Assembly (NCBI GenBank): GCA_017856115.1
Contig: JAFMFM010000001.1
Coordinates: 44,961 to 108,960, forward strand
Source of the DNA: Actinomycetota bacterium
GTDB lineage: Bacteria > Actinomycetota > Acidimicrobiia > Acidimicrobiales > Ilumatobacteraceae
Reading direction: 5' to 3'
Length of the DNA stretch: 64,000 nt
Part shown: positions 13,814 to 47,295 of the stretch, in pieces
How positions within the stretch are numbered: position 1 is the first letter of the stretch
How the letters are laid out: each line of letters opens with the position of its first letter
Position numbers and translations under genes: made by a program
The notes under the pieces: generated by a model
The model's input: the letters and a program-made list of their open reading frames with translations, nothing else
Databases searched by the model: none
What the model was told of the DNA's origin: nothing

Positions 13814-13900
13814 GTCGAAGTGGCGAAATTGGCAGACGCACCAGCTTGAGGGGCTGGCGCTCGAAAGGGCGTGGGGGTTCAAGTCCCCCCTTCGACACCA
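13814..13900 (+). tRNA. tRNA-Leu (anticodon GAG), long variable arm, CCA encoded
   Basis: Cloverleaf folded by hand. Acceptor GTCGAAG/CTTCGAC. Anticodon stem CCAGC/GCTGG with loop TTGAGGG (anticodon GAG). Variable arm CGCTC-GAAA-GGGCG. T-arm GGGGG-TTCAAGT-CCCCC. Discriminator A followed by CCA at 13898-13900. Confidence 0.88.
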
Positions 13901-13942
13901 CATGATGCAAAACGCGTCATCCAACGGCGAGAATGGACGTTG

Positions 13943-15307: not shown

Positions 15308-15316
15308 AGTACCTTC

Positions 15317-15895
15317 ATGGATTCTGCTCCTCCACACGTGCCTGATCGGGCGAGATTCCGATCCTTCCAAGAATCAACGAAGGATGACTGGTCGTTGATC
15401 ATGAGTCATATCGGAGATACCCAGGACATGGTCGCCGACAATGCGCTTCATCTCCTTCGTCGACTTGCCAGCGATCATGGCGGTTTCCCCGTCACCCGAC
15501 TGGAACACTCGCTGCAAACCGCAACTCGTGCGGAAGCCGATGGTCGGGACGAGGAGTACGTGCTCTGCGCATTGCTGCACGACATCGGTGACACGCTCGC
15601 ACCTTTCAACCACCCGTACATTGCGTCGACGATGGTGAAGCCCTTCGTGACCGAAGCCAACCACTTCATGGTGGCGCAGCACGGCATCTTCCAGGGCTAC
15701 TACTTTTGGCACCACATCGGAATGGATCGCAACGCCCGCGACGCGTTCAAGGACTCGCCGTACTACCACTACACGGAGGAGTTCTGTGCCAAGTACGACT
15801 CGCCGGCGTTCGACCCCGACTACGTCAGCGCCCCCCTCGAGCATTTCGAGCCGCTCGTTCGTCGCTTCTTCGCTGATCGTTCGAAAACGAAGTAA
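15317..15895 (+). CDS. HD-domain protein with an extended H..HD..H..H..D ligand pattern (PhnZ / myo-inositol-oxygenase-like diiron oxygenase candidate)
   Basis: Motifs LEHSLQ, LLHDIGD, FNHPY, AQHGIF and KYDSPAFD in the order expected for mixed-valent diiron HD oxygenases; 192 aa. The stop overlaps the next start (TAATG at 15893-15897). Confidence 0.75.
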   Translation: MDSAPPHVPDRARFRSFQESTKDDWSLIMSHIGDTQDMVADNALHLLRRLASDHGGFPVTRLEHSLQTATRAEADGRDEEYVLCALLHDIGDTLAPFNHPYIASTMVKPFVTEANHFMVAQHGIFQGYYFWHHIGMDRNARDAFKDSPYYHYTEEFCAKYDSPAFDPDYVSAPLEHFEPLVRRFFADRSKTK

Positions 15896-17184: not shown

Positions 17185-17253
17185 CCTCGTGTCGCTGCTG
17201 AATGCAGTATTCGTCTGAGCACCTTCGCCTCACTCGGTATCGCCGAGCAGCTC

Positions 17254-18396
17254 GTGACCGGAATGGGTCGACGCGGTATCACCGAGCCAACCGCCATTCA
17301 GACCATGACCGTTCCCGATGGTTTGGCGGGGCGGGACGTTTGCGGTAAGGCGCCGACCGGCTCGGGGAAAACCATCGCGTTCGGGCTGGTGTTGGTGTCG
17401 AGGCTGAGACGTGCAAAACCGTCGGCACCCACGGGTTTGGTACTCGTTCCCACGCGCGAGCTCGCATCCCAGGTATGTGCGGAGATCGATTTGCTCGATT
17501 CCGGGCGCACGTTGCGCGCCACCGCAGTATTCGGCGGCGCGGGTTACGGGCCCCAGGTACGACGGATTTCCTCCGCAAGCGTTGTGGTGGCCACGCCCGG
17601 ACGTTTGGAGGATTTGATCAGTCGCCGCGACATCGATCTGCGATCGGTACAAATCGCAGTGCTGGATGAAGCCGATCGGATGGCGGACATGGGATTCCTT
17701 CCGGCAGTCAAGAAGATTCTCGACCGCCTCCCGGCGACCCGACAGGTCTTGTTGTTTTCGGCAACCCTCGATGGGGCGGTATCGGAATTGATTACGCGTT
17801 ACCAGCGAAATCCGGCTCGCCATGACGCGAGTTCGCCCGAGACCGAGCCGGATATCGAGCACGTGTTCGAGTTGATTCCGAAGGACAGACGATTGCGGCG
17901 TATCGCCGAATTGCTGGACCAGCACGAGCAAATCATCGTGTTCTGTCGCACCAAGCACGGATCGGATCGCGTGGCCCGACAATTGGAGGCCGATGATGCA
18001 CGGTGTGCGGTCATCCACGGGAATCGCAGTCAGGCCCAGCGGGAACGAGCGCTCGACGATTTTCGTCGAGGTCGTGCTCGAATCCTCGTTGCCACGGACG
18101 TTGCGGCCAGGGGTATCCACATCGACGACGTGCCCTGCGTCGTGCATTGGGACCCACCCGACGACCCGAAGGACTACGTGCACCGCTCAGGGCGCACGGG
18201 TCGAGCCGGCGCACGGGGAGTGGTCGTTTCGTTCGTCGACCCTTCACAACGAAGATCCGTCATGCGCGACATGCGAAGCATCGGTATCGACGTGCACTTC
18301 GTCGACGGCAAGCCACCATCACGTGCCCGGCCGGGCGAACTCGGTTGGCTCGCAAGCCGGGTGCAACGACCCGTGGAGTTCTCCGGCAGCGAGTGA
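17254..18396 (+). CDS. DEAD-box ATP-dependent RNA helicase (5' boundary uncertain, see findings)
   Basis: Q-motif PTAIQ, Walker A APTGSGKT, VLDEADRM, SAT, ARGIH and HRSGRTGRAG. GTG 17254 is the first canonical start. The conserved Q-motif Phe (17224-17226) lies upstream of it in the same open frame. Confidence 0.88.
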   Translation: MTGMGRRGITEPTAIQTMTVPDGLAGRDVCGKAPTGSGKTIAFGLVLVSRLRRAKPSAPTGLVLVPTRELASQVCAEIDLLDSGRTLRATAVFGGAGYGPQVRRISSASVVVATPGRLEDLISRRDIDLRSVQIAVLDEADRMADMGFLPAVKKILDRLPATRQVLLFSATLDGAVSELITRYQRNPARHDASSPETEPDIEHVFELIPKDRRLRRIAELLDQHEQIIVFCRTKHGSDRVARQLEADDARCAVIHGNRSQAQRERALDDFRRGRARILVATDVAARGIHIDDVPCVVHWDPPDDPKDYVHRSGRTGRAGARGVVVSFVDPSQRRSVMRDMRSIGIDVHFVDGKPPSRARPGELGWLASRVQRPVEFSGSE

Positions 18397-18399
18397 GGC

Positions 18400-20670
18400 T
18401 CAGCCAAAGACGATGTCGTGTGGTCGTACCGGCACGCGCGGCAATTCCTTGCCCGTTGCCTGACGAATGGCCGCGACGATGGCGGGCGTCACCGAGATGC
18501 ACGGGGGTTCGCCGATTCCCTTGGCTCCCAGCGGTGCCTGGGGTTCGGGTTCCTCGATCATGCTGACCACGACCTCGGGGGCGTCGAGTGCCGTGGGTAG
18601 TAGATAGTCGGTGAACGACGGATTCCTCATCCTTCCGTTCTCGAGCACGATCTCTTCCATCACTGCCAGACCAAGGCCTTGAGCGATACCACCTTCCACC
18701 TGGCCGAGCGCCGCAAGTGGGTTCAATACGCGTCCGACATCCTGTGCGGTGGCAACCTGCACCACCTTTACGAGACCAAGTTCCGTGTCGACATCGACCA
18801 CCGCTCGGTGCGCGACGAAAGCGAAGGCGACGTGGCAATTGCCTTGGCCGTTTTCATCCAATTCCTCGGTTGCGCGATGGTGGTGTTCGAACGTCTCGTC
18901 GAAGGTGAGATCCTTCGAAGCCTCCGTAACCGTCACCCGCAACGTTCCCATGCTGTCCACCACGTCCGTTCCATCGATGACCAGGCGGAGGGGGTCGACG
19001 TGGTGCGTTGCTGCTACGTGCTCGAAGAGACGTTCCCGCACGAGTCGACATGCACCATCGACCGCACCACCGCTCATCCATGTTTGACGCGATGCCGACG
19101 TACTGCCTGCACTCCCGATGGCGGTGGAAATCGGCTCGAGGAGTACCGTGTCGACTCCTAGCACCGTACGCGCAATCTGTTGTGCAAGGACGACGAATCC
19201 CTGGCCCACCTCCGCGGTGGCGAACTGCAGCGTGGCCACCCCGTTGGCGAGACGACATCGTGCGGTTGCGTAGTCGTCGAAGCCCTCGCTGTACATCAGA
19301 TTCTTGATGGAGACACCCCAGCCGATGCCTCGTGTGATGTTGCCGCGACGTGCGGTCAAGCCTGCCCCGCCCGGAATGAGCAACGGATCGGGGTCCGCGG
19401 GCAACGGCTCGGGTAGCGGTATCGCGGCGGTCTCGCGGATACAACGTTCAACGGGGGCGACGCTGTCCATGACCTGGCCGGTGATCAGACGGTCACCGGT
19501 GCGCATCGCATTCTTCAGTCGTATGTCGACGGGGTCCAGTCCGCAGGCAGCGGCGAGCTTGTCCATCTGGGACTCGTGGGCGAAGCACGCCTGCACGACT
19601 CCGAAACCGCGCATTGCGCCGCACGGGGGATTGTTCGAACGAACGGCGTAACCGTCGACGGTTGCCATCTCGCACTTGTACGGCCCTTGCATGTGGGTAA
19701 CCGCGTTGATGAGAACCGCCGACGAGGTGGACGCGTAGGCACCACCGTCGAGGACGACTCGGGCCTCCACTCTGCGCAGGGTTCCATCCCAGTCGGCGTG
19801 GTGACGCATGAAGATTCGTGCCGGATGGCGATGAATATGCCCGAAGAACGACTCTTCACGTCCGTACTGCATCTTGATGGGTCGACCCGTCGTGAGTGCC
19901 AGCAGGCAACAATGAACCTGCAGGCTGATGTCCTCCCTGCCTCCGAATGCACCGCCCACGCCGCCGAGCGTGAGACGAACCTTCTCGATCGGCAGATCGA
20001 GGCACGCTGCGATCTGTTTCTGATCCTCGTGCAACCACTGTGTGGCGACGAACAGTTCGACACCACCTCCTGCGTCGTCGGGCAGTGCCAATGCAGCTTC
20101 CAGCCCGAGGAATGCCTGATCCTGCATGCCGACGTCGTAGTAGCCCTCCACCACGACGTCACCCACGAACGATTGGTCACCACGAATGATGCGTTGTCTG
20201 CGGATCACGTTGCCGTCGGGATGAATGGCGGGAAATGAACCGGAGATCGCATCCTCTGCGTCGACGAGCGGCGGGAGCACCTCGTAGTCGACACGAATGG
20301 CATCGAGCGCCCGACGCGCAGTTTCGGGATGATCGGCTGCCACTGCCGCCACGGGTTCACCGGCATACCGCACCATCTCGCTGGCGAAGACCGGCTGATC
20401 GCTGGCGATGAGTCCGTACGTCAGTTGTCCCGGAACGTCCTTGGCGGTGATCACCGCACTCACCCCGTTGATGGCCAGTGCTCCGGAGACGTCGATCGAG
20501 ACGATCCGGGCGTGCGGATGGGGGCTTCGTAGTGTCGCGCCCCACAGCATGCTGTCCGCCCACGCATCGGACGAGAACGCGAACCGACCCTGTACCTTCG
20601 GGATGCCATCGGGTCGTAGCGCCGATGATCCGAGGGCTCCTCGTCGTTGGGTTGACGTCTTGGTGGTCAT
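18400..20670 (-). CDS. Xanthine dehydrogenase family molybdopterin-binding large subunit
   Basis: 756 aa with GGVGGAFGGRED, CGAMRGFG and GAKGIGEPP motifs, which resemble the XDH-type Glu/Arg/Glu active-site positions. It lacks the AYRCSFR loop of true CO dehydrogenases. Confidence 0.9.
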   Translation of the reverse strand: MTTKTSTQRRGALGSSALRPDGIPKVQGRFAFSSDAWADSMLWGATLRSPHPHARIVSIDVSGALAINGVSAVITAKDVPGQLTYGLIASDQPVFASEMVRYAGEPVAAVAADHPETARRALDAIRVDYEVLPPLVDAEDAISGSFPAIHPDGNVIRRQRIIRGDQSFVGDVVVEGYYDVGMQDQAFLGLEAALALPDDAGGGVELFVATQWLHEDQKQIAACLDLPIEKVRLTLGGVGGAFGGREDISLQVHCCLLALTTGRPIKMQYGREESFFGHIHRHPARIFMRHHADWDGTLRRVEARVVLDGGAYASTSSAVLINAVTHMQGPYKCEMATVDGYAVRSNNPPCGAMRGFGVVQACFAHESQMDKLAAACGLDPVDIRLKNAMRTGDRLITGQVMDSVAPVERCIRETAAIPLPEPLPADPDPLLIPGGAGLTARRGNITRGIGWGVSIKNLMYSEGFDDYATARCRLANGVATLQFATAEVGQGFVVLAQQIARTVLGVDTVLLEPISTAIGSAGSTSASRQTWMSGGAVDGACRLVRERLFEHVAATHHVDPLRLVIDGTDVVDSMGTLRVTVTEASKDLTFDETFEHHHRATEELDENGQGNCHVAFAFVAHRAVVDVDTELGLVKVVQVATAQDVGRVLNPLAALGQVEGGIAQGLGLAVMEEIVLENGRMRNPSFTDYLLPTALDAPEVVVSMIEEPEPQAPLGAKGIGEPPCISVTPAIVAAIRQATGKELPRVPVRPHDIVFG

Positions 20671-20688
20671 GGTGATGGGTCGTCTCCG

Positions 20689-21177
20689 CTACTTCGCCTG
20701 CATCGCACGGCGCTGGTCGCGAGCACGTTCCACCGCGGCGAAGATTCGCCCGTAGCCGGTGCAGCGGCAGATGTTGCCACTGATTGCTTCTTTGATGGCC
20801 AATTCATCGGGGCTCGGGTTGCGATCGAGCAGGTGATGCACCGCAACGATGAGGCCCGGGGTGCAGAAACCGCATTGCACGCCACCGGCTTCGACGAAGG
20901 ATTGTTGAACGTCGGTTGGCTCACCGTCGAGCGATAGCCCTTCGACGGTGGTGATGTCCGCGTCGACCGCAGTTGCCGCCATCACGAGGCACGAGCAGAC
21001 GGCCTCACCGTCCATCACCACGGTGCACGAACCGCATTCCCCCTGCTCGCAGGCTCCCTTCGTACCGGGCAGGCCGAGGCGTTCGCGCAGAACGTACAGC
21101 AGGCTTTCACCGGCCCAGGCGTCCTTCACCTCGTGCTCGATTCCATTCACCGTGAGTCGGTATATCTCGTTGCTCAT
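20689..21177 (-). CDS. Xanthine dehydrogenase family [2Fe-2S] small subunit
   Basis: 162 aa with CEQGECGSCTV, CGFCTPG and CRCTGY cysteine clusters. ATG 21177 overlaps the upstream stop (ATGA at 21174-21177). The ORF-track extension to 21375 is rejected. Confidence 0.92.
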   Translation of the reverse strand: MSNEIYRLTVNGIEHEVKDAWAGESLLYVLRERLGLPGTKGACEQGECGSCTVVMDGEAVCSCLVMAATAVDADITTVEGLSLDGEPTDVQQSFVEAGGVQCGFCTPGLIVAVHHLLDRNPSPDELAIKEAISGNICRCTGYGRIFAAVERARDQRRAMQAK

Positions 21178-22040
21178 CGTGGTGACTTTCCATGGTCGTT
21201 GGCTCGCAGGAGCAGGCGTTCGACGAGCACCGCGATGGCATGGCGTCGATACGAGGCGGTGGATCGATGGTCGTCGATGGGAGAGCATTCCGCGGCAGCG
21301 CGTCGACCAAACTCGCGGGCGAGTTCCGGTGTAACGGTCAGTGGGGCTGCGAGGTTCGTCTGCGATGCCAGCCATGCTTCGGCCTCGCGCGTCCGCACGA
21401 CGGTCGGGGCGACCGCACCGAGAGCCACGCGGATGGTGCCGCCGAGGGCGTCGTGCACCACGCAGACAGAGGCAGCAGAGATGACCATTGCGTTGCGCGT
21501 TCCCACCTTGGCGTAGCCCTGGAACCCGTTGAGGACCGGCAAGGTGACGGCCACGATCACCTCATTGGGCTGGCGCGCGTTCTTCTTTACCCCGAGCATG
21601 AATTCATGGATCGACAGATCGCGGGACGCATCCAGACTCTGGAGGTGCACGGTGGCATCGAGTGCAGAAAGGACCGGTAGTCCGTCGCCCGCAGGTGAAC
21701 ACGTTCCGAGATTGCCGCCCAGTGACCCCGCTGCGCGAATTTGCGGCGATCCGACCGTGCGAGCCGCTTGGGCGAGTGCCGGAAGATGGTGACAGAGAGG
21801 GGAGCGTTCCATCTCCGCGTAGGGAATGCCGGCACCGAGGCGGATGGTTTGGGAATCCTCGGCGATGTGCCAGCGCTTGAGTTCGTTTACTCGTCGAAGG
21901 GCGACGACGTCGTGCAATGTCGTGCGATTGAAGTTGACCTCGACCATCAGGTCGGTACCGCCCTGCACCAGGCGTGCTCCCGGGTGATCGTGCAACGCCT
22001 CCAGTGCCTGTTGCAACGACGTGGCATTGACGACCGTCAT
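21174..22040 (-). CDS. Xanthine dehydrogenase family FAD-binding medium subunit (CoxM/XdhB-like)
   Basis: ~288 aa with the [16 protein letters not shown]-binding motif. ATG 22040 overlaps the stop of the upstream LLM gene (ATGA at 22037-22040). TTG 22055 is an alternative start. Confidence 0.88.
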
Positions 22041-23044
22041 AGGTTCGGGCTCCAATCCGAGAAGGCGTCGATCATGGATTTCACGTCACCAAGCGGGTAC
22101 AGGATGGGGCACGTGGCACCATTGCGCATGTAGTGCTCCACCTGAGCGCGTGCATCGGCGGGCGTGCCGCTGGCGGTGAGCATCTGAACGATCTCGTCGG
22201 GAACGAACTTGGACGCCGCTACCACCTGCTGGTGCGTCGCCGGCCATGTGAGCACGCTTCCCACCTTGTCGAGCAGCGATTGGGGCACCCCCGAGGCCTT
22301 CATGATGTGTGGCTGTTGGCCAAGGTATTGGGTGACCATTTGGCGTGCCATGTCGAGGGCGGTCGCGCGGTCTTCATGCACGCTGCACACGACGAGTTGC
22401 GGACGATCGATCGACTCGAGTGAGCGACCCGCCTTGGCTGCGCCCCGTTCCAATGCCTCCAGTGCTTTTGCGTTGTACTCGGGGGACACCAGGTAGTTCA
22501 GGACCACGCCGTCGGCGATTTCACCGGTGAGTTCCATCATCTGCATGCCGGTGGCGCCGATGTAGATCGGCACGTCCTTCTTTCGGCGTTCCTGATACAC
22601 GTAGTCGAGCTCGACTCCGTCGAGTTGCACGAACTCTCCCTGCATCGTGACGGTTTCGTTGTTCAGGAGTGCGCGAACCGCGGTAACGATCTCACGCATG
22701 GCACGCAGGGGTCTGCTGCGATCGATACCAACTTTCTTGGCAAGTGGATCCCACCAGGCGCCGATGCCCAGCAATACTCGACCGGGCGCAAGATCATCGA
22801 GCGTGCTGAAGGTTGCAGCGAGACGTGCGGGATTCCGGCTCCAACAGTCGACCACTCCCGAGCCGACCTTCAGCTTCGTGGTGACCGATGCGAAGGCGGC
22901 CATCGGCACGGTTGCTTCACGTACGAGACGACTCTCGGCTTGCCACACCGCCTCGAAACCCTTGGATTCGGCGTACTTGGCGAACTCCATTCCCTCACGC
23001 AGTGGGTGGGCATCCTGCAGGTACAACGCGACTCGTGCGGCCAT
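22037..23044 (-). CDS. Luciferase-like monooxygenase (LLM) class oxidoreductase, probably F420-dependent
   Basis: 335 aa. TIM-barrel LLM features ([26 protein letters not shown]) resemble Mer-like F420 reductases. ATG 23044 lies 2 nt after the upstream stop. The Arg-rich ORF-track extension to 23227 is rejected. Confidence 0.82.
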
Positions 23045-23046
23045 GG

Positions 23047-24168
23047 TTACAGGTCCTCCATTCGGCGGTGTAGACGAGCGGCAGCTTCGGCGGCCTTCGC
23101 TCGAATCTCGACCTCGTCGACCAGCGTCGTCGTCCCCCGATCGACGATGATTCGGGGACTCGATGAGCCATCCGTGGCGGTCTCGACGCGCTCGACTCGC
23201 ATGCCGGTGGTGAAAGCGGCGTGCCATGCATCATCGGCATGCGGATATCGCCATGTCACTCGATCATCCTTGGATTGAGGGAACAACTCTCGGGTATTGT
23301 CCAGCCAGCCCGATACCACGTCGGGTGTTGCGGTTTGATCGAACTCGCGTAGCCGCACGTATGCGAGACGGAATTCTTCGTACATGTCGGATCCGATGCC
23401 GTCGGATCCGAGTACCACGGTGTTGGGGCGAGTGGTGGGTGCGGCATACCCGACACCGTTGTTCATGTTGGAGCGGGGGTTGTGGGCGAGGCGGCCGGGC
23501 AGTGTGCGGTCGAGGTGCACACCATGCACGATGAGCCATTCGTCCGTTGCGTGTGGGGCCAGGCGTGCGGCAGCCTGCGAGTCGTCGATCGCCTCGGCAA
23601 CATGTACGTGCACGCCCACGTTCAACGATGTGGCCAAGTCTGCGGCCGCGGCGATGGTTTCATTGCTGCAGGTGAATGCGGCATGGAGTCCGACCATGCC
23701 GGCCTTGCCCGAGCGGATGTGACGCTCGCACTCCTCGAGACCGCGCTTGGCACCTTTCGTCATCGGGGAAAGAGGGGATACCTTCTGGTGCAGCGTGTCG
23801 TCGTCGCGCCAGCGATCCGTTGCTCCGTAGCACGTGCGCACACGAACCCCTACCTCGCTGCAGGCGCGGTCGATCGCCTCCAGCGATCCCTCGATGGCGC
23901 GGGGCGATTCATGGTGATCCACGATGCAGGTGGTTCCCGCCAGTACTGCCTCGACTGCACCGAGTTTTGCCGACCAGTAGATGGTGTCGAGGTCGAGGGC
24001 AGCATCGAGGCGCCACCATACGAGTTCGAGCATGTGGGGGAAACTTGTGGCGACTCCTCGCGATGCCGGCATGCCTCGAGCCATGGCGGAGTACAAGTGG
24101 TGGTGGGCGTTGACCAAACCGGGTGTCACGCTGAGCATGTCTGCTCGGTGTGCGGAGATGGCGTTCAT
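23047..24168 (-). CDS. Amidohydrolase-fold enzyme, SsnA / chlorohydrolase-like, with a short N-terminus
   Basis: HxH metal motif in [15 protein letters not shown] (compare SsnA-type NHFYSGLSRG). Further His/Asp ligands are spread along 373 aa. ATG 24168 overlaps the stop of the upstream hydroxylase (ATGA at 24165-24168). Confidence 0.8.
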
Positions 24169-26750
24169 TCGTCGTCTCCAACTCGGCGCATCGGCAGCGT
24201 GGTGCGCCACTGACCGTCGAGGTCGTGCAGTGCTGCGGCCACGGCGCCCGCCGTCGGCACGAGTCCGATCTCTCCGACGCCCTTGATTCCGTACGGAGCA
24301 TTCGGCTGTGCGCGCTCGACGAGGATGACATCCATCGGTGGCACGTCCTTGGCTCGCAGGATGCCGAGGCTTCGCAGCGTCATATTCGTGGGGAATCCCG
24401 TTTCCGGATCACTGGGAAAGTCCTCGGTCAGTGCATAACCAAGACCCATGTGGATGCTGCCTTCGATTTGTCCCTCGCAGAGCGTGGGGTTCATCGCGCG
24501 TCCAACGTCGTGCGCAGCAACCACACGTTCGACATTGCCCGTCTCGCGGTTGAGGACGGTCATCTGGGCTGCGTAGCCGAACGTGGAGTGAATGATTGGG
24601 CTGGTTACCTTCGGGTCGCCGAGTTTGGTGGTCCAGTCGACGCGGTATTCACCTAGATGGTCCACGCCGCGAGTGAGTCCAGCCGCCTTGGCCGTGTTGC
24701 ATGCAGCGTGCACGGCACCCGCACCCATCAACGTGCCGCGCGATCCCGTGGTCTGTCCCAGCCCGAGTTCGCGCGTGGTGTCGACGATGACCCGTATCTT
24801 TCCGGGGTCGATGTCCAGAACGCCGCCGAGTTCCTCGATTGCGACCTGGATGGCGATGGTATTGATGCCCTGACCCATCTCGGTCCATCCGTGACGAATC
24901 TCGAGCGTTCCGTCGTGTTCGATGCGAACCACGGCCTTGGTGACTTCCTTGAATCCATTGCCGAGCCCACTGTTCTTCAGACCGAGACCGAGCCCCACCG
25001 CACTACCTGCTGCGCGTGCCGCGTCGTAATGCGGTTTGATGGCCTCAAGACAGGCGAGAGCCCCATCGCAACCGTCGTCCATGATTTGGCCGGGACCCCA
25101 TACCATGCCGGGGCGAATCACATTGCGTCGACGTATCTCCCAACCGCTGAGGCCAACTCGCTCGGCCAAACGGTCGAGCATGCCTTCCATCGCAAACTGT
25201 GCCTGGTTGGCACCGAAACCGCGGAACGCACCACCGACCGGGTTGTTCGTGCGCACGGCAATGGACTCCACGTCGATGTTGGGCAGGTGGTAGGGACCAC
25301 TTGCGTGGCCGGCCATGCGTTCGAGCACCTTCATGCCGACACTCGCGTACGCTCCGGAGTCACCGACTGCACGCACGCGCAACGCCGTGAGCATGCCATC
25401 GGTATCGCAGGCCATCCGGTATCTCATGCGGATGGGATGCCGTTTTGCGTGCATGAGAAAGGATTCTTCGCGCGAGAGCACACACTTCACGGGCGCGTCG
25501 ACCAGCCAGGCGGCGAGTGCGGCGTGGGCTTGGTTCGACATGTCTTCCTTGCCACCGAATGCACCGCCGTTGGTGACGAGTTCGACGGTGACTCGGGCGT
25601 CGTCGATTCCAAGAACGCGAGCGATGTCGTTACGGTCGTCCCAAATTCCTTGCCCGCCCGAGTAGACGTGCAATGTTCGCGAGGTCCCCGTGCCTGCCGG
25701 TACCGCAAGCGTGGCCTCGGGTTCGAGGAATGCATGCTCGATTCTCTGTGTTTGGAAGGTTTCCTCGATCACGTGTGCGCTCGAGGCGAATGCAGCGTCG
25801 ACGTCACCACGCGCATAGGTGCTGGTGCTGAGGATGTTGTCGTTGGTTCGCCACACGGCGACTTCCGGGGAGGACAGCGCGACGTCGACGTCGGTGATGG
25901 GAGCATGAACTTCGTAGTCGACCCGGATTAGTTTTGTTGCCGCACGTGCGTTGAGGCGCGAATCGGCAACGACGATTGCGAGCACGTCACCGGCGTACGA
26001 GGTACGACCACCCACGGGAATCATCACTGGCCAGTCCTTGTGGATGATGCCGACCATCAGTTCCCCCGGGATGTCGGCAGCGGTGTAGACCGCCCTAACA
26101 CCTTCGGACTTCCGAGCGTCATCCACGTCGATTCGCGTCACTGTCGCTCGCGCGTGTGCGGTGAAATGGAGCGCCGCATGGAGCATCCCGGAGATTCGAA
26201 TGTCGTCGACGTAGCCGCGGTCACCGAGTGCCAGTGATTCGGCTTCGTACTTGGGCGTTCGGCTCCCGATTCCTGCGACGGGTGGCATCGCAGGTATCTC
26301 GTTGCGCGCAACGCATTCGATTGCATCGAGGATCTTTGCGTACCCGGTGCAACGACACAGGTGTGCACCCAGGTGTCGCGCCATGTCTTCGCGCTTGAGT
26401 GTCGATCCTTTCTTGTCGATCTGGGCCTTTGCGCGCACGACGATTCCCGGGATGCAGAATCCGCACTGCAGCCCGCCGCATGCCGCAAAGGCCGAAGCGA
26501 ACCTTGCCCGCTCAGTTTCCGGGACACCCTCGAGTGTGACGACGGATTTTCCGTCGACTTTCTCGAGGCTGGTCTGGCACGAAACCACCGCCTTGCCTTC
26601 GATGAGGACGGTGCAACACCCACACTGACCGCTCGGTGAACACCCATCCTTGGGTGACGTGATGTCGAGTTCCTCGCGAAGTGCCGAGAGCAGATGTGGG
26701 TGTGACTGCCGGACCACGACGGGGCTTCCGTTGACGATCAGGGATGTCAC
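24165..26750 (-). CDS. Fused [2Fe-2S] + molybdopterin-binding hydroxylase (XdhD / aldehyde-oxidoreductase architecture, no FAD domain)
   Basis: 861 aa. N-terminal cysteine clusters CSPSGQCGCCTV, CGFCIPG and CRCTGY run straight into a Mo-binding domain with GGAFGGKED, GGAFRGFG and GVGEIG. GTG start at 26750. Confidence 0.9.
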   Translation of the reverse strand: MTSLIVNGSPVVVRQSHPHLLSALREELDITSPKDGCSPSGQCGCCTVLIEGKAVVSCQTSLEKVDGKSVVTLEGVPETERARFASAFAACGGLQCGFCIPGIVVRAKAQIDKKGSTLKREDMARHLGAHLCRCTGYAKILDAIECVARNEIPAMPPVAGIGSRTPKYEAESLALGDRGYVDDIRISGMLHAALHFTAHARATVTRIDVDDARKSEGVRAVYTAADIPGELMVGIIHKDWPVMIPVGGRTSYAGDVLAIVVADSRLNARAATKLIRVDYEVHAPITDVDVALSSPEVAVWRTNDNILSTSTYARGDVDAAFASSAHVIEETFQTQRIEHAFLEPEATLAVPAGTGTSRTLHVYSGGQGIWDDRNDIARVLGIDDARVTVELVTNGGAFGGKEDMSNQAHAALAAWLVDAPVKCVLSREESFLMHAKRHPIRMRYRMACDTDGMLTALRVRAVGDSGAYASVGMKVLERMAGHASGPYHLPNIDVESIAVRTNNPVGGAFRGFGANQAQFAMEGMLDRLAERVGLSGWEIRRRNVIRPGMVWGPGQIMDDGCDGALACLEAIKPHYDAARAAGSAVGLGLGLKNSGLGNGFKEVTKAVVRIEHDGTLEIRHGWTEMGQGINTIAIQVAIEELGGVLDIDPGKIRVIVDTTRELGLGQTTGSRGTLMGAGAVHAACNTAKAAGLTRGVDHLGEYRVDWTTKLGDPKVTSPIIHSTFGYAAQMTVLNRETGNVERVVAAHDVGRAMNPTLCEGQIEGSIHMGLGYALTEDFPSDPETGFPTNMTLRSLGILRAKDVPPMDVILVERAQPNAPYGIKGVGEIGLVPTAGAVAAALHDLDGQWRTTLPMRRVGDDE

Positions 26751-26814
26751 CTTTACAGTTTGTCAAAGACCACCCCCACCTCCAACGGATGGCCGGAGGG
26801 GCCGTTGCGGCCGC

Positions 26815-27792
26815 TCAGTCGGGGGTTGTGGGCAATTCCGAGCCGTCAGAACGCGTGCGTGGACCTCGTTGTGACGTCAGCCGGGTGTACACCTCGGGGC
26901 GTCGGTAGAAGTCCATGTCGAACAGTGTGTTTTGGTAGTTCTTGCACCATTCAAGGTCACAGTCGGCCACGACGACTTCATCGCCGTTGCCGACGGTCTT
27001 GGCCAGGATTTCTCCCGATGGTGCGATGATCTGGGATTCGGCAAGGGAGTCCACGCCCTCCTCGCAGCCGCCCTTGGCCACGCCCACCACGAAGGTGCCA
27101 TTCTGATACGCGCCCGACTGCATCACGAGCGTGTTGTGGAAACCGGCAAGTCGGTCTTGACTCGGATCGGGAAGATAACTGAGCGGTGTGTTGTAGCCGC
27201 ACAGGATGAGTTCCACACCCTGCAATCCCATCTCCCGATACGTCTCGGGCCATCGGCGATCGTTGCAAATCATCATGCCGATGCGTCCCGTAAACGCGGT
27301 CCAGACACCGAAGCCTTCGTTGCTCGGCTGAAAGTAGTAACGCTCGGCGTGCTGGAATTTGCGTTTCGGTTCATGCGTTGCATGACCCGGCACGTGAACC
27401 TTCCGGTACGAACCGACGATCGAGCCGTCGCGTTCGACGAGGATTTGTGTGTTGAATCGCTCACCCGCGGCGGTGAGCTCGGCGTAGCCGAGTGAGAACC
27501 CGACCGATCGTTCCCTTGCTGCCTCGAACAGCGGGGCGGTGATCGTCGATGGCATTTCCCGTTCGTAGTAGTGGTCGGCTTCGGAGATGTTCTCGACGAA
27601 CCATCTCGGAAAGAAGGTGGTGAGGGCCAGTTCGGGGAACACCACGAGGTGAGCCCCCCGATCGGCGGCATTGTGCAGCAGCGCGCACAACCTCGACACG
27701 ACGGATTCGCGAGCATCGGATGCCTGTACCGGACCCATTTGCGCCGCCGCCACACGCACGATCCGTGGAGAGCCGCGCAGTTCTCCGCGCAT
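26815..27792 (-). CDS. Nitrilase-superfamily N-carbamoyl-D-amino-acid hydrolase-like decarbamoylase
   Basis: Glu-Lys-Cys triad contexts VVFPELALTTFFPRW, YRKVHVPG and MMICNDRRWPE closely resemble D-carbamoylase. The ATG overlaps the upstream stop (TAATG at 27790-27794). Confidence 0.88.
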   Translation of the reverse strand: MRGELRGSPRIVRVAAAQMGPVQASDARESVVSRLCALLHNAADRGAHLVVFPELALTTFFPRWFVENISEADHYYEREMPSTITAPLFEAARERSVGFSLGYAELTAAGERFNTQILVERDGSIVGSYRKVHVPGHATHEPKRKFQHAERYYFQPSNEGFGVWTAFTGRIGMMICNDRRWPETYREMGLQGVELILCGYNTPLSYLPDPSQDRLAGFHNTLVMQSGAYQNGTFVVGVAKGGCEEGVDSLAESQIIAPSGEILAKTVGNGDEVVVADCDLEWCKNYQNTLFDMDFYRRPEVYTRLTSQRGPRTRSDGSELPTTPD

Positions 27793-29054
27793 TAGAAATT
27801 GGTCCCTGCGAGTCGCAACATCACATCAAGGAGGATGTTCGCACCTGAAACGAGGTCGGCTTCGTCGGTGTGTTCGTTCACGTTGTGGCTGAGTCCGCCA
27901 TGGCTGGGAACGAAGATCATGCCCGTTGGACACAGGCGTGCGAGCATTTGTGCATCGTGTCCGGCACCCGAGGGCATGCGTTGGACGGAGTTACCACGAT
28001 CACGCGCCACGGATTCGACCAGGTCCACCACGCGATCATCGAAAATGACGGGTTCGAATCGCGCCAGCGGGCGGCGAACGATTCGCACGCGCTCTGCGAC
28101 GGCGAGTTCTTCGCAGAACCTGGCGATGTCGGCCTCGGCCGATTGCAGTATCGATTCATCGGTATTGCGAACGTCGAGTGTCATCACCACCTTGGATGGC
28201 ACCACGTTGGTGAGGTTCGGATGAACGTCGATCTTGCCCACGGTGCACACCTGGTTGCCGGCGAGGCGTGTCGCCAGATCGCGCAGGAATACGGTCAGTT
28301 TGGCCGCCGCAAATGCGGGATCCTTGCGCAGGTGCATCGGCGTGGTTCCTGCATGGTTGCTTTGGCCTTCGATCGTTACTTCCTGCCAGGAGATGCCCTG
28401 CACACCCGTGACGGCGCCGATGCGAACCTGGTTGACCTCCAGCAGCGGCCCCTGCTCGATGTGGAGCTCCACGAAGGCGTGCGGCACCACACCCGGACAC
28501 GGAGTGGCTCCGAGGTAGCCGATACGTTCCAATTCATCGCCGAGTCGGGTTCCATCGATACCGATCACATCGTGTGCCGTTTCGGGCAACATACCGCCGA
28601 CGTAGACGAGGGACCCCAGCATGTCGGGCGCGTACCGCGCACCCTCTTCGTCCGTGAAGATTCCCACGGCGAGCGGACGCCGTGGTTCGATACCACGTTC
28701 CTGGCAGGTCTCGATGACCTCGAGTCCGGCGAGCACGCCGTAGTTGCCGTCGTAGAGACCGCCGGTGCGCACGGTGTCGATGTGCGAGCCGGTCATCACC
28801 GGCGCGCCCGTACCAACCTGCCAGGTTCCAACGATGTTTCCGACCACGTCGATGGCGACGTTCATGTTCAGGTCCCGCATCCACGCCACCACGAGATTGC
28901 GGCCGTCGCGGTCGGCATCGGTCAGTGCGAGACGGTTGCAGCCCCCACCTGGAAGCCCGCCCACCTCGCCGAGTGCCATGATTCGCTTCATCAGGCGACG
29001 GTCGTTGATGTCCACTCGAGTGCCATGTGGGGGGACGAACTCCGCCGAGCGCAC
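27792..29054 (-). CDS. M20-family Zn-dependent amidohydrolase (allantoate amidohydrolase / N-carbamoyl-L-amino-acid hydrolase / beta-ureidopropionase class)
   Basis: 420 aa. GSHIDTVRTGGLYDGNYGV metal-binding motif and the overall pattern of the AllC/AmaB family. GTG start at 29054. Confidence 0.86.
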   Translation of the reverse strand: MRSAEFVPPHGTRVDINDRRLMKRIMALGEVGGLPGGGCNRLALTDADRDGRNLVVAWMRDLNMNVAIDVVGNIVGTWQVGTGAPVMTGSHIDTVRTGGLYDGNYGVLAGLEVIETCQERGIEPRRPLAVGIFTDEEGARYAPDMLGSLVYVGGMLPETAHDVIGIDGTRLGDELERIGYLGATPCPGVVPHAFVELHIEQGPLLEVNQVRIGAVTGVQGISWQEVTIEGQSNHAGTTPMHLRKDPAFAAAKLTVFLRDLATRLAGNQVCTVGKIDVHPNLTNVVPSKVVMTLDVRNTDESILQSAEADIARFCEELAVAERVRIVRRPLARFEPVIFDDRVVDLVESVARDRGNSVQRMPSGAGHDAQMLARLCPTGMIFVPSHGGLSHNVNEHTDEADLVSGANILLDVMLRLAGTNF

Positions 29055-29108
29055 CGCGCCATTCTATGAATGGCAGACTTGTGCACCGATGATGAATGAA
29101 ACAGTGCA

Positions 29109-30458
29109 ATGACCGGTATCGACCGCAGCGTCTTGGCGGGGCTCATGGCGCAGGAGACGGACCGGTTCGTCACGACGCATCCGCGTTCCGGTGAACACGC
29201 CCGATCGGCGTCATCGCTCGTTGGTGGAGTTCCGATGCCGTGGATGCGTCGGTGGCCCGGACCATTTCCGCTCGTACTCGAGGCCGCGAACGGTGCACGC
29301 TTTACGGATATCGATGGTCACGAGTACGTGGACCTGTGTCTCGGTGACACCGGTGCGATGACGGGTCATGCGCACCCCGCGGTGGGGCGGGCAATCGCCG
29401 AGCAACTGGGTCGTGGCGCAACGGTGATGTTGCCGACCACCGATGCCAGTTGGGTGGGCGACGAATTGGCTCGTCGCTTCGGCCTGCCAAAGTGGCAGTT
29501 TGCACTGAGTGCCACGGATGCGAATCGTTTCGTGCTCCGCTTTGCACGCGGAATCACGGGTCGGCCCAAGGTGCTCGTGCACGACTGGTGCTACCACGGC
29601 ACCGTCGACGAAACGCTCGTCGTTGCGATGGGCGATCGTACGGTGAGTAGACCCGGTGCGATCGGACCTCAGGTGAATCCCGCGCTCACGACGCGCGTGG
29701 TGCAGTTCAACGATCTGGCGGGTCTCGAGGAGGCGGCAGCCATTGGCGACGTGGCGTGCATGTTGATCGAACCCGCGCTCACCAATATCGGCATCGTGTT
29801 ACCGGAACCCGGCTACCTGGAGGGCGTTCGCGAGATCACACGACGGTACGGCATCTTGTTGATCATCGACGAGACGCACACCATTTGTGCGGGGCCTGGT
29901 GGCTGTACCGCGGCATGGGGGCTGGAGCCGGACATCGTGGTGATCGGCAAGACGATCGGCGGGGGAACTCCGGTCGGGGCCTACGGGTTTTCGGCCGATG
30001 TGGCGGCGCAGGTTGCCGCGTTGCAGGATCATGACGGAATCGACGTTTCTGGAGTGGGCGGAACGCTCGCTGGCAACGCACTGTCGATGGCGGCCGTTCG
30101 GGCAACGCTGACGCATGCACTGCTTCCGGAACAGTTTGCCCATACGGTGCAACTGGCGAAGGAATGGACGAACGGTGTACAGGACGCCTACGAGCGCCGG
30201 GGTCTTTCATGGAGCGTCCAGCAACTCGGTGCACGTGCCGAATACTGGTTTTGTCCACCACCACGGACCGGCGCCGACGCGGCTGCGGCGGTCGACCATG
30301 AACTCGATGCATTCATGCACCTGTGGGCAATTAATCGCGGCGTCCTGCTGACGCCGTTCCACAACATGGCGTTGTTCTCACCCTTCCATACGCAGGCCGA
30401 TGTCGATGCCCATACCCGGCAGTTCGACGCCGCTCTCTTGGCTTTGACGGGCCGTTAA
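29109..30458 (+). CDS. Class-III (GSA-aminomutase-like) PLP-dependent aminotransferase
   Basis: 449 aa with LIIDETHT and the Schiff-base lysine context VVIGKTIGGG. It is divergent from the minus-strand operon across a 54-nt spacer. Confidence 0.86.
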   Translation: MTGIDRSVLAGLMAQETDRFVTTHPRSGEHARSASSLVGGVPMPWMRRWPGPFPLVLEAANGARFTDIDGHEYVDLCLGDTGAMTGHAHPAVGRAIAEQLGRGATVMLPTTDASWVGDELARRFGLPKWQFALSATDANRFVLRFARGITGRPKVLVHDWCYHGTVDETLVVAMGDRTVSRPGAIGPQVNPALTTRVVQFNDLAGLEEAAAIGDVACMLIEPALTNIGIVLPEPGYLEGVREITRRYGILLIIDETHTICAGPGGCTAAWGLEPDIVVIGKTIGGGTPVGAYGFSADVAAQVAALQDHDGIDVSGVGGTLAGNALSMAAVRATLTHALLPEQFAHTVQLAKEWTNGVQDAYERRGLSWSVQQLGARAEYWFCPPPRTGADAAAAVDHELDAFMHLWAINRGVLLTPFHNMALFSPFHTQADVDAHTRQFDAALLALTGR

Positions 30459-30470
30459 GTACATCTCAGG

Positions 30471-31256
30471 ATGGGATGGCTGGGTGCTGGTCTGGTGGAC
30501 ATCGGCGCGGGGAACACAGTGTGGGTTCTCGTCGTCATGCTCTTGGCCGCCCTCGTGCAGGCCCTCGGAGGGTTCGGTTTCGCCCTCATGGCGGTTCCTC
30601 TTGCCGCTCTCGTCGTGGATCTCGAATTGGCGGTGGTCGCTGTGAGTGTCGGCTCCCTCGTCAACACGGCCCTGCTGTGTGCTCGTACGTATCGGCGAGT
30701 GGAACGCAAGGTTGCCGTGCGCTTCAACGTTCCGGCCCTCATCGGTATGCCGATCGGGCTGTGGGTCCTGCGGACCGCGCCACAGAACCCCCTCAAGGTG
30801 ATGCTGGGAGTCATCATCGTCGTTGCAACGCTTGCATTGATGCGGTCGGCATTCCGAGTGCCGGGTGATTCCATGTTGAAGCCCGCTGCGAGGGCCGCGG
30901 TTGATGTAATTGCCGGATGGCTATCGGGCATTCTTTCGACGTCCACCGGAACCAACGGGCCACCCCTCGTGCTTGCATTGGCGTCCCGACGTCTCTCGCC
31001 CGAAGTTTTTCGTGCGACATTGGCGTTCACGTTCACCGTCACCGGCTCATTGAGCCTCGCGATGTTCGCCGTGTCCGGAATGGTGTCGCGCGATGCCCTG
31101 ACGATCGCCGCCGTTGCCGTTCCGCTGATCCTGCTCGGTCAGGGTGTGGGGATTCGATTGCAGCCGAAACTGTCCAATCGACGCTTCGATCGACTCGTGT
31201 ACGTCTTGCTCATCCTGAGCGGATTGTCGGTCGGGATATCGGGAGTGACGGGCTGA
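30471..31256 (+). CDS. TauE/SafE-family (DUF81) anion permease
   Basis: 261 aa, about 8 hydrophobic helices and Gly-rich helix motifs typical of sulfite-exporter TauE/SafE proteins. It lies 12 nt downstream of the aminotransferase gene. Confidence 0.8.
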   Translation: MGWLGAGLVDIGAGNTVWVLVVMLLAALVQALGGFGFALMAVPLAALVVDLELAVVAVSVGSLVNTALLCARTYRRVERKVAVRFNVPALIGMPIGLWVLRTAPQNPLKVMLGVIIVVATLALMRSAFRVPGDSMLKPAARAAVDVIAGWLSGILSTSTGTNGPPLVLALASRRLSPEVFRATLAFTFTVTGSLSLAMFAVSGMVSRDALTIAAVAVPLILLGQGVGIRLQPKLSNRRFDRLVYVLLILSGLSVGISGVTG

Positions 31257-31276
31257 TACGTAGGCGTTGTTCGTCG

Positions 31277-31984
31277 TTACCGGCCGAACCAGCCGAGCCA
31301 CGCCTCCTTGGACTTCGGCTTGAAGATTGCGTTGCTGTTGCGAATGGTCCCCATCGGACCGTGGGACTCCGTCGAATAGCGATGACCCGGGTAGACGACC
31401 GTGTCGTCGGGAAGGCTGGAAAGTTTCTGCAAGCTGTCGTACATGTCCTCGGGGTTGCTGCCAGGTAGATCGGTACGACCGCAGCCATCGAGGAACAGGG
31501 TGTCGCCGGACACCAGTCGCCCCTCGACGAGAAAGCATTGACTGCCCGGTGTGTGACCCGGTGTGTGGAGCAGCGTGACGGGCACGTCGCCCACCATCAC
31601 CACGTCGCCCGGCTCGTGTACGGACAGATGCGATCGGTGCACGCCGGTCACCTTCGTCACCCACTCCGCTTCGGCTCGTTGAACGTGCACGGGAACGGAA
31701 CAATGCTCCAGGAGAGCGGCGATTCCCTCGATGCGATGGCCCATCATCGATCCACCGACGTGGTCGGGATGGTAGTGGGTGGCGAGCACTCCCGTCACCG
31801 TCATGTGGTCCTGCGATACGGCGTCGATGAGGGACTTCACGTCGTACGCCGGATCGACGAGCAAACACTCGCCGGTCGATCTGTCGCCGATCACGTAGAC
31901 GAAGTTCACCATCTGTCGTGCCATGTCGTCGTCACCTGCGAAGTCTCGACCCGAGAGCAACTGGCGGAAGTACAACCGGTCCAT
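31277..31984 (-). CDS. MBL-fold metallo-hydrolase (glyoxalase II-like)
   Basis: HxHxDH motif THYHPDHVGG, later HTPGHTPG and DTLFLDGCGR. ATG 31984 gives 235 aa. The Arg/Pro-rich ORF-track extension to 32284 is rejected. Confidence 0.86.
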   Translation of the reverse strand: MDRLYFRQLLSGRDFAGDDDMARQMVNFVYVIGDRSTGECLLVDPAYDVKSLIDAVSQDHMTVTGVLATHYHPDHVGGSMMGHRIEGIAALLEHCSVPVHVQRAEAEWVTKVTGVHRSHLSVHEPGDVVMVGDVPVTLLHTPGHTPGSQCFLVEGRLVSGDTLFLDGCGRTDLPGSNPEDMYDSLQKLSSLPDDTVVYPGHRYSTESHGPMGTIRNSNAIFKPKSKEAWLGWFGR

Positions 31985-47293: not shown

Positions 47294-47295
47294 CG

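Follow-up and report, generated by a model that had tools for sequence, protein, structure and literature searches.

Closest described systems and the studied locus

The reductive urate pathway was established by two studies in 2025 (PMC12507026; bioRxiv 10.1101/2025.04.24.650524) and has been discussed in a commentary (PMC12990295). In this pathway XdhD or XdhAC reduces urate to 2,8-dioxopurine, YgfK or UacX then dearomatises the product, SsnA opens the reduced ring to ureidomethyl-hydantoin or 5-ureido-dihydrouracil, HyuA yields 2,3-diureidopropionate, YgeW or UacY together with YgeY strip the ureido groups, and YgeX converts 2,3-diaminopropionate to pyruvate (PMC12507026; 10.1101/2025.04.24.650524). 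A variant in which F420-type luciferase-like oxidoreductases (LLMs; PF00296) replace YgfK/UacX next to SsnA is mentioned for Chloroflexota in a single untested sentence of Li et al. 2025 (PMC12507026), who do not describe Acidimicrobiia (PMC12507026), and full-text literature searches returned no further report tying F420 or LLMs to the reductive urate pathway. Here, a stretch of 64,000 nt (the window) from an Ilumatobacteraceae (Acidimicrobiia) metagenome-assembled genome (MAG; GCA_017856115.1, contig JAFMFM010000001.1, positions 44,961-108,960 of the forward strand) was analysed, in which eight co-directional minus-strand genes fill the region from 29054 down to 18400. On balance, this block is best read as a single operon that mineralises purines through a modified form of the reductive uric-acid pathway (2,8-dioxopurine or "yanthine" pathway), the chemistry of all steps being assigned from homology and gene context. 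Most likely, the first half of the route resembles that of the characterised cluster, whereas reduction and decarbamoylation would be carried out by enzymes not homologous to those known.

An earlier note on this DNA had described the block as an uncharacterised degradation route, which is superseded in that this kind of route was characterised in 2025 as the reductive urate pathway; its remark that the substrate of the adjacent xdhD and ssnA genes of E. coli is unresolved is likewise outdated, as the question was solved in the same year (PMC12507026; 10.1101/2025.04.24.650524). From the purine-, pyrimidine- or hydantoin-like substrates that it proposed, the purine stands and the range narrows to purine/urate, and from the general logic that it outlined, Mo-hydroxylation, a flavin/F420-type redox step, hydrolytic ring opening and decarbamoylation stand, with transamination only a possibility. 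The domain calls were all upheld by Pfam and NCBIfam profile searches.

The gene count and the junctions were taken from a six-frame open reading frame (ORF) listing, with the junction sequence read directly. The operon begins with an M20 carbamoylase-family gene (27792-29054), followed by a CN-hydrolase of the D-carbamoylase (DCase) type (26815-27792), a fused 2Fe-2S/Mo hydroxylase of the XdhAC/2,8-dioxopurine dehydrogenase (DOPDH) type (24165-26750; 861 aa), a short SsnA-like amidohydrolase (23047-24168; 373 aa), a Mer-like F420-class LLM (22037-23044; PF00296), and the FAD subunit (21174-22040; PF00941 and PF03450), 2Fe-2S subunit (20689-21177; PF01799 and PF00111) and PucD-type Mo subunit (18400-20670; 756 aa) of a xanthine dehydrogenase (XDH), the last being the final gene, all on the minus strand. 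The nine genes previously counted are thus eight, while the junctions quoted with them proved exact in every case: TAATG at 27790-27794, ATGA at 24165-24168, 22037-22040 and 21174-21177, and 2 nt between the SsnA-like stop and the LLM start (TAA-CC-ATG at 23042-23049), with only two longer spacers, at 26751-26814 (64 nt) and 20671-20688 (18 nt). Of the seven junctions, five overlap or are separated by 2 nt, and the operon is probably translated with stop/start coupling. The GC content is uniform (~61-63%), and a DEAD-box helicase gene, which ends at 18396, runs convergently towards the operon end. Such tight packing is ordinary for a high-GC actinobacterial operon, so the weight for a more-than-chance association rests on conservation.

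Compared with the clusters of C. sporogenes and C. difficile (xdhAC, ygfK/uacX, ssnA, hyuA, ygeW/uacY, ygeY plus ygeX), the block is alike in that a hydroxylase best matched by TIGR03311 adjoins an SsnA-like gene and a putative dearomatising reductase gene, in its two putative ureido-cleaving hydrolases, in an XDH that would feed urate in, and in that relatives of the window carry YgeX, YqeB and YqeC. It is unlike them in that the proposed reductase is a Mer-like F420-class LLM, the SsnA is truncated (~370 aa) and under cut-offs, HyuA is lacking, a CN-hydrolase DCase and an AmaB/AllC-like M20 protein would stand in place of UacY/YgeW and YgeY, a class-III aminotransferase is present and YgeX is not, the host is an aerobic planktonic actinobacterium, and no selenium-cofactor genes lie nearby. 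The E. coli cluster (ygeW-ygeX-ygeY-hyuA-yqeA...ygfK-ssnA-ygfM-xdhD) shares the Mo hydroxylase adjoining SsnA and an FAD subunit in the cluster, whereas the window protein is 24% identical to E. coli XdhD (TIGR03313-type), and the window is without the ATP-yielding carbamoyltransferase/carbamate kinase branch, the sigma-54 regulator and UacT. With the pucABCDE/puc regulon of B. subtilis the block shares a protein passing the PucD equivalog, separate FAD and 2Fe-2S genes, an allantoate-amidohydrolase-like M20 protein and an aminotransferase; unlike puc, it has no uricase, 5-hydroxyisourate (HIU) hydrolase, 2-oxo-4-hydroxy-4-carboxy-5-ureidoimidazoline (OHCU) decarboxylase, allantoinase, PucR or PucA/B within 10 kb, and its aminotransferase is of class III, not PucG-like. 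The hyu systems of Agrobacterium and Arthrobacter hold a close homologue of the DCase (313-377 bits to solved DCases), but the window has neither hydantoinase nor racemase, and its DCase sits in a purine-type Mo-hydroxylase operon. Mer, the F420-dependent methylene-tetrahydromethanopterin (H4MPT) reductase, is the nearest relative of the LLM in sequence and fold, although the LLM falls under all Mer equivalog cut-offs, the host is no methanogen or methylotroph, and the gene context is one of purine catabolism. The Chloroflexota variant (Li et al. 2025), compared by its description, is alike in that a PF00296 gene replaces YgfK/UacX next to SsnA, and unlike in that the present block belongs to Actinomycetota/Acidimicrobiia and carries a DCase, M20 and aminotransferase set that is undescribed there.

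Conservation of the cluster among Acidimicrobiia

Identical copies of the block were observed in the MAGs GCA_046766455.1 and GCA_046766235.1 and in several metagenomes, and its close relatives are labelled Ilumatobacteraceae/Acidimicrobiia. For the survey, 80 genome loci with short-SsnA relatives (54-95% SsnA identity) were sampled and the window proteins were mapped onto each, the arrangements being counted in the 52 loci with both SsnA flanks covered. Both XdhD and LLM were located next to SsnA in 40/52 loci and LLM only in 3/52, XdhD only was found in 0/52, and neither of the two in 9/52. The full eight-gene order was kept in 14 loci, and dozens of MAGs from Acidimicrobiia, with SsnA identities as low as 54%, share the core arrangement M20-DCase-XdhD-SsnA-LLM. 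In the distant lineages (among them Microthrixaceae, "Aldehydirespiratoraceae" and Poriferisocius) the XDH genes lie upstream or inverted and the five-gene core is unmoved, and in marine Acidimicrobiia loci, which were reached via LLM homologues, the order FAD-FeS-Mo-M20-DCase-XdhAC-SsnA-LLM was observed with overlapping junctions and with proteins 53-75% identical to those of the window. The recurrence of the order in relatives, for which the earlier note had suggested a neighbourhood survey, is thereby borne out by the XdhD-SsnA-LLM counts, the complete copies and the marine loci, and nowhere did the block in its entirety match a characterised pathway at high identity.

A functional link between XdhD, SsnA and LLM is supported by the 40/52 loci, by the lack of any locus with XdhD but without LLM, by a paralogous triad in marine relatives and by the apparent fusion protein P0312. 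The paralogous triad belongs to a second module that lies beside the conserved cluster on the opposite strand of the marine loci L094-L097 (~12300-21000). This module encodes a YgfM-like FAD subunit, a 973-aa FeS-Mo enzyme resembling XdhD/XdhA, an SsnA-like protein of full length (443 aa) and another Mer-like LLM, and it also holds XdhC, YqeB, YqeC and an M15 peptidase. In P0312, a database protein of 1169 aa, an XdhAC-type domain (residues 1-843), which shares 46% identity with the window protein, is joined to a domain of the short SsnA kind (~858-1112); this may be a Rosetta-stone fusion, or else an artefact that a frameshift or the assembly produced where the ATGA overlap lies. Joint loss of XdhD and LLM was also considered as strong evidence of co-evolution and was set aside, as the SsnA tree shows only about two events.

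The purine reading is supported by the genes that relatives recruit, namely 8-oxoguanine deaminase, YgeX, YgeY, PnrA-type transporters and YqeB/YqeC. An 8-oxoguanine deaminase equivalog (547.4 bits against 532) lies directly after LLM in the marine loci, with orthologues in L078 and L088, and the product of this enzyme is urate. YgeX homologues stand directly after LLM in L066 and L078, L055 has a YgeY orthologue (42% identical), and a Bmp/PnrA-type nucleoside ABC transporter was observed upstream of M20 in L057, L061, L081 and L029. The marine loci carry YqeB (292.6 against 220) and YqeC (144.6 against 73) equivalogs, plus XdhC, beside the cluster; YqeB and YqeC are markers of the selenium-dependent Mo cofactor. 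In L029, from a soil/groundwater relative, the cluster is followed at 12212-18838 by genes for pyruvate:ferredoxin oxidoreductase (PFOR) and for an FeS flavoprotein of GltD/PreT-like type that shares 33% identity with a part of YgfK, neighbours that hint at a ferredoxin-linked electron supply and a pyruvate end-product.

Molybdenum hydroxylases of the operon

The fused FeS-Mo protein matched TIGR03311 (Se_dep_XDH, profile length 848) with 824.5 bits against a cut-off of 830.45, residues 3-855 aligning with profile positions 2-842; the next family, pucD, scored 442. Its previous description as "XdhD-like" is imprecise, in that the protein shares 24% identity with E. coli XdhD and groups by its best profile match with the clostridial XdhAC/DOPDH type (TIGR03311). 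An identity of only 24% is expected, since the XdhD proteins of E. coli and C. difficile are themselves ~25.6% identical (Li et al., PMC12507026). XdhAC is the type that was purified as 2,8-dioxopurine dehydrogenase by Liu et al. (10.1101/2025.04.24.650524), with the Mo-binding region at residues 307-839. In an alignment to human xanthine oxidoreductase (XOR) and paralogues, the equivalents of bovine XOR E802, R880, F914 and E1261 are kept as E402, R437, F512 and E827. Among the selectivity sites, A1078 corresponds to T668, the PucD-type subunit has S at the A1078 position, and F1009V was not seen, the residue being F in the window protein and A in the marine orthologue. The FeS-Mo enzyme is proposed to be a urate to 2,8-dioxopurine reductase.

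The Mo subunit at the operon end passed the TIGR03196 pucD equivalog with 831.6 bits against a cut-off of 783.65, and the equivalents of E802, R880, F914 and E1261 are all present; together with the adjacent FAD and 2Fe-2S subunits, the PucD equivalog and the purine-type active-site residues place the enzyme among the PucCDE-type XDHs. Public gene calls start this subunit 40 codons downstream (716 aa), but residue 17 of the 756-aa ORF is already aligned with the PucD profile, which makes the longer form, with its 18-nt spacer, the more likely one. The best NCBIfam match of the FAD subunit was XdhB (171.8 bits, under cut-off), and the 2Fe-2S subunit scored 159 bits with XdhC_XDHase and 157 bits with pucE, both under cut-offs. 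The FAD subunit is possibly shared with the XdhAC-type enzyme. Elsewhere in the window, a MobA-like NTP transferase (PF12804; 57641-58498, plus strand) with a ~90-aa N-terminal extension and scores under the MobA cut-offs may be the Mo-cofactor nucleotidyltransferase serving both Mo enzymes 27 kb away.

Short SsnA-like amidohydrolase and Mer-like LLM

The SsnA models matched the short amidohydrolase best by far (NF005540 221.5 bits and TIGR03314 211.6 bits, with the next family at 72), and the protein is 34% identical to E. coli SsnA over residues 54-355 of the latter. The SsnA-specific motifs WWRLD, DHHESP and GxDGIGSDMxEE are retained, and the Acidimicrobiia homologues are all 353-382 aa in length. 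The nearest folds of its AlphaFold2 (AF2) model (pLDDT 87) are COG0402 deaminase-type amidohydrolases. The protein is proposed to open the reduced purine hydrolytically. Since it scores far under the TIGR03314/NF005540 cut-offs, a survey of the SsnA family (IPR017700) would probably miss it.

The LLM gene occupies the reductase position next to SsnA, and its product gave 224.9 bits with PF00296. All of its top 15 NCBIfam matches were F420-LLM families, each under its cut-off (best PRK02271, 176 against 276), and FMN-type LLM families scored at most 50 bits (<=50). Sequence matches in the PDB gave 130 bits for Mer with F420 and 37 for SsuD, and the AF2 model (pLDDT 76) was nearest to Mer with bound F420, with TM-scores of 0.81-0.82 at 25-27% identity. 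Of all genes in the block, the LLM is conserved best, with a median identity of 85% over loci (L013-L092) in which SsnA reaches 59% and the FAD subunit 58%. F420 biosynthesis has been reported in marine Acidimicrobiia (PMC7771536). The LLM is proposed as an F420H2-dependent 2,8-dioxopurine (yanthine) reductase in place of YgfK/UacX.

Proposed ureido-cleaving hydrolases

The M20 protein belongs to a family of Zn-amidohydrolases comprising carbamoylases, beta-ureidopropionases and allantoate amidohydrolases. It passed TIGR01879 ("amidase, hydantoinase/carbamoylase family") with 380.6 bits against a cut-off of 204, and NF006771 (an "allantoate amidohydrolase" subfamily) with 413.9 bits against 399, and did not reach the AllC equivalogs. 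Its best PDB sequence matches were the L-carbamoylase 3n5f and the N-carbamoyl-beta-alanine amidohydrolase 8c46 (262-318 bits), with AllC at 197, so that the "allantoate amidohydrolase" label was rejected despite the NF006771 pass, the protein being closer to L-/beta-carbamoylases than to AllC. An oxidative puc-like route was rejected as well, no uricase, HIU hydrolase, OHCU decarboxylase or allantoinase domains being present in the called genes within 10 kb. Nor is the protein YgeY, as it belongs to the TIGR01879 subfamily and gave 31 bits (E 7e-4) with E. coli YgeY. It is proposed to be a decarbamoylase for the ureido group of 2,3-diureidopropionate or albizziin and thus a functional YgeY analogue, and its kinship with allantoate and beta-ureido amidohydrolases would suit diureidopropionate, a compound "reminiscent of allantoate" according to the commentary (PMC12990295).

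The CN-hydrolase matched the solved DCases 8i99/6le2 over its full length with 377 bits and the Agrobacterium DCase 1erz/1fo6 with 313-321 bits, and the motifs of the Glu-Lys-Cys triad are kept as FPE (52-54), RK (130-131) and ICND (C176). Full-length similarity and the triad place it among the DCases, and it is proposed to be the functional counterpart of UacY/YgeW, with the 2-ureido (D-alpha) group as its target. This assignment fits the pathway in view of the D/R stereochemistry proposed for the intermediates (PMC12990295).

Proposed pathway and alternative explanations

In the proposed pathway, the PucCED-type XDH (18400-22040) would oxidise hypoxanthine/xanthine to urate, and the XdhAC/DOPDH-type enzyme (24165-26750) would take the 6-oxo group off urate to give 2,8-dioxopurine, possibly with electrons passing via the single FAD subunit of the operon. 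The Mer-like LLM (22037-23044) would then dearomatise 2,8-dioxopurine with F420H2, replacing the FeS-flavoproteins YgfK/UacX, and the short SsnA (23047-24168) would hydrolyse the amidine carbon C4 of the dihydro compound and open one ring. The second ring would be opened by an activity encoded elsewhere than the window, which holds no HyuA homologue, and the ureido groups would be cut hydrolytically by the DCase and the M20 protein, replacing YgeW/UacY and YgeY. Diaminopropionate may go to the divergent aminotransferase, which resembles glutamate-1-semialdehyde (GSA) aminomutase (GSAM), instead of a YgeX lyase. A bolder version is put forward tentatively: that aerobic planktonic Acidimicrobiia of lakes and oceans run an oxygen-compatible, F420H2-driven 2,8-dioxopurine pathway with an LLM reductase, with a minimal SsnA that opens the rings by itself or together with a partner not yet recognised, no dedicated hydantoinase being involved, with a hydrolytic DCase and an AllC-like M20 protein, and with a GSAM-like aminotransferase disposing of the vicinal diamine.

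Several observations weigh against assigning the block to the reductive pathway. The published requirement for a pathway call is 4 of 7 signature proteins (Liu et al., 10.1101/2025.04.24.650524); only two of the seven have homologues in the block, which is therefore not a member of the characterised cluster by that measure. For YgfK/UacX the window offers no homologue, and L029 is the one locus that carries a GltD-type gene resembling YgfK; YgeX is absent from the window, and YgeW has no homologue in the window or in the 80 loci. No PF07969 protein was called in the block, UacY not having been searched by sequence. E. coli HyuA gave no tblastn match in the window or in the 80 genome loci and the Pfam calls for the marine loci show no evident hydantoinase, which leaves one ring-opening step without a candidate. 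A search for a hidden hydantoinase, which covered unassigned ORFs flanking the core in 27 diverse loci, yielded no cyclic amidohydrolase; several of these ORFs lacked any Pfam match, and the others included ABC transporter parts, an amidase-signature protein (L088), an Amidohydro_2 protein (L074) and the PFOR and GltD-like protein of L029. In tblastn searches with E. coli HyuA, YgeX, YgeW, YgfK, YqeA/B/C, MocA, XanQ, UacT and GuaD, the window was empty beyond paralogous matches. The YqeB, YqeC and XdhC of the marine loci have no counterpart in the window, nor within 10 kb at any of the 80 genome loci, and the marine HTH_22 regulator is likewise absent from the window and these loci. The known DOPDH is oxygen-sensitive and selenium-dependent, whereas the window host carries a haem A synthase gene. 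At the level of the proteins, the FeS-Mo protein lies 6 bits under the TIGR03311 equivalog cut-off, and the published selectivity residues (F1009 and A1078) are uninformative for the window enzyme; the SsnA-like protein scores half of the cut-offs (444 and 455), aligns with profile positions 57-349 only and lacks the N-terminal ~55 residues. Finally, nine loci (L027, L039, L040, L041, L043, L047, L053, L068 and L075) hold clusters of the form M20-DCase-SsnA-FAD-FeS-Mo with no XdhAC-type gene or LLM at the locus, and on the SsnA tree these core-less loci form two clades plus scattered rearrangements. Since the two clades keep M20, DCase, SsnA and XDH genes without XdhD and LLM at the locus, SsnA may not strictly need a reduced substrate, or the XdhD and LLM genes may lie elsewhere.

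The same two clades are one reason to consider a purine operon that does not pass through 2,8-dioxopurine, in which XDH would produce xanthine/urate, the SsnA-like protein would act directly on an unreduced purine (xanthinase- or deaminase-like), the carbamoylases would remove ureido groups, and the second Mo enzyme and the LLM would form a side-substrate module. The COG0402 deaminase-type structure of the short SsnA agrees with this, a hydrolytic "xanthinase" route without prior reduction is known in Clostridia (PMC12507026), and the canonical reductive scheme is hard to reconcile with a block that lacks HyuA and YgeX. Nevertheless, such an operon appears unlikely, as XdhD and LLM directly flank SsnA in 40/52 loci, often with overlapping stop/start codons, an apparent DOPDH-SsnA fusion (P0312) exists, marine relatives hold a second paralogous triad of Mo enzyme, SsnA and LLM, the SsnA-specific motifs are retained, and the later activities of the xanthinase pathway (decarboxylase, aminoimidazole deaminase and formiminotransferase) were found in none of the neighbourhoods.

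The kinship of the LLM with Mer, which acts on a pterin derivative, also allows another N-heterocycle as substrate (pterin/lumazine, a pyrimidine by an oxidative barbiturate-type route, methylxanthine or nicotinate), with successive Mo hydroxylations and the LLM reducing a pteridine-like ring. COG0402 relatives include isoxanthopterin and isocytosine deaminases, and XDH-family enzymes are generally known to hydroxylate pterins. Against such a substrate, which is judged quite improbable, both Mo enzymes keep the purine-binding E802/R880 pair, which aldehyde oxidases lack and whose E802 position is occupied by Leu in nicotinate dehydrogenase, the Mo subunit passes the PucD equivalog cut-off, and the 8-oxoguanine deaminase, PnrA-type nucleoside transporters and YgeX of relatives point to purine/urate and a diaminopropionate end-product. 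The variable position of the XDH genes (after LLM, upstream or inverted) in distant relatives, and the lineage-specific aminotransferase, TauE and metallo-beta-lactamase (MBL)-fold genes, could finally be taken to mean that no single pathway exists and that a housekeeping XDH operon stands beside an unrelated N-carbamoyl-amino-acid/hydantoin unit and an unrelated F420 enzyme. With five of seven junctions overlapping or 2 nt apart, no terminator-like site on the coding strand in the intergenic spacers, the M20-DCase-XdhD-SsnA-LLM order held from freshwater to marine genomes at 53-75% protein identity, and a DCase without an accompanying hydantoinase, this is very improbable, and the variant reductive uric-acid pathway is retained as the preferred explanation of the block.

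Divergent transcription unit and other features of the window

The class-III aminotransferase (29109-30458, plus strand; GSA-aminomutase-like, PRK07046) diverges from the M20 gene over a 54-nt putative promoter spacer (29055-29108), as had been proposed, while the TauE/SafE (TSUP) permease (30471-31256, plus strand) is not itself divergent from the spacer and lies 12 nt downstream of the aminotransferase on the same strand. The aminotransferase passed NF005453 with 638.5 bits against a cut-off of 425, and its PDB matches were 5ykr, a "probable aminotransferase" (430 bits), and GSAMs (~200 bits); a literature search on PDB 5ykr/5ykt for its function returned nothing relevant. It adjoins M20 in ~15 Ilumatobacteraceae loci and is absent from many loci that keep the core and from the marine loci, and is a lineage-specific accessory gene; an outlet for 2,3-diaminopropionate instead of YgeX is a possible role. 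The permease (PF01925, 106.2 bits) adjoins the M20 end in most Ilumatobacteraceae loci, even without the aminotransferase, and is likely the transporter of the system. The statement that the block has no dedicated importer overlooks this probably co-transcribed gene, whereas the accompanying statement that no regulator and no XdhC-type chaperone lie inside the block agrees with the window and tblastn checks.

A GloB/ETHE1-like MBL-fold hydrolase gene (31277-31984, minus strand) is convergent with TauE, and the pairing is kept in most Ilumatobacteraceae loci. It was considered as the missing ring-opener and rejected, being GloB/ETHE1-like, convergent with TauE and outside the operon. The MBL and TauE genes could be a persulfide-dioxygenase/sulfite-exporter pair unrelated to purines.

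Within the divergent spacer, the minus strand carries a -10-like TAGAAT (29061-29066) at a distance of exactly 6 nt from the GTG start (29054) that follows it, and TAGA[AC]T or TAGGAT followed by 6 nt and GTG is kept in L013-L016, L030, L031, L033 and L037, the spacers being otherwise diverged. The conserved hexamer spacing supports 29054 as the start of the first gene. By analogy with known actinobacterial leaderless transcripts, the operon mRNA is probably leaderless and transcribed from the 54-nt spacer. A perfect palindrome, GCCATTC-N3-GAATGGC (29058-29074), overlaps the -10-like hexamer, with ~0.19 matches expected per window by chance; as a conserved operator it was rejected, being present only in near-identical loci. 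When 18000-31500 was scanned for sigma-70 and terminator sites, fewer were obtained than in shuffled sequence, and the operon spacers contained none on the coding strand. An Rfam scan of the whole window at gathering thresholds gave only a tRNA-Leu and no purine, xanthine or Moco (molybdenum cofactor) riboswitch; this tRNA-Leu (GAG; 13814-13900, plus strand) is the sole RNA gene detected in the window.

The remaining window is of housekeeping character (gap-pgk-tpi, an Opp-type ABC system, secG, pyk, IMPDH and BipA). Its genes include one for haem A synthase (COX15/CtaA), an indication of aerobic respiration. Adjoining this gene and a TetR-SnoaL fusion regulator is a Liv/Urt-type ABC transporter (45938-51254), which comprises two permeases (BPD_transp_2), two ATPases and a divergently encoded binding protein (Peripla_BP_6) and which could import urea, amides or amino acids. 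A DAO-family FAD oxidoreductase gene (33192-34577, minus strand), whose best match is an "aminophosphonate oxidoreductase" family under cut-off, is syntenic with the cluster in several relatives, and a type-B carboxylesterase gene (34584-35936, minus strand) follows.

Implications

The reductive urate pathway was solved only in 2025 and has been presented as a trait of gut and other anaerobes that need selenium and FeS-flavoprotein reductases. If the proposed assignment is true, the pathway would reach a new setting, the scavenging of purine nitrogen in oligotrophic waters by abundant aerobic freshwater and marine Acidimicrobiia, and "reductive" urate degradation would not be confined to anaerobes. 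The missing hydantoinase step represents a concrete, testable gap, and the F420 2,8-dioxopurine reductase, the minimal SsnA and the hydrolytic decarbamoylases would be alternative parts for engineered urate-lowering systems. The proposed assignment, if true, would also provide the first physiological role of F420 in purine catabolism and a concrete catabolic role for F420 in aquatic actinobacteria, where its function has been described as unclear.

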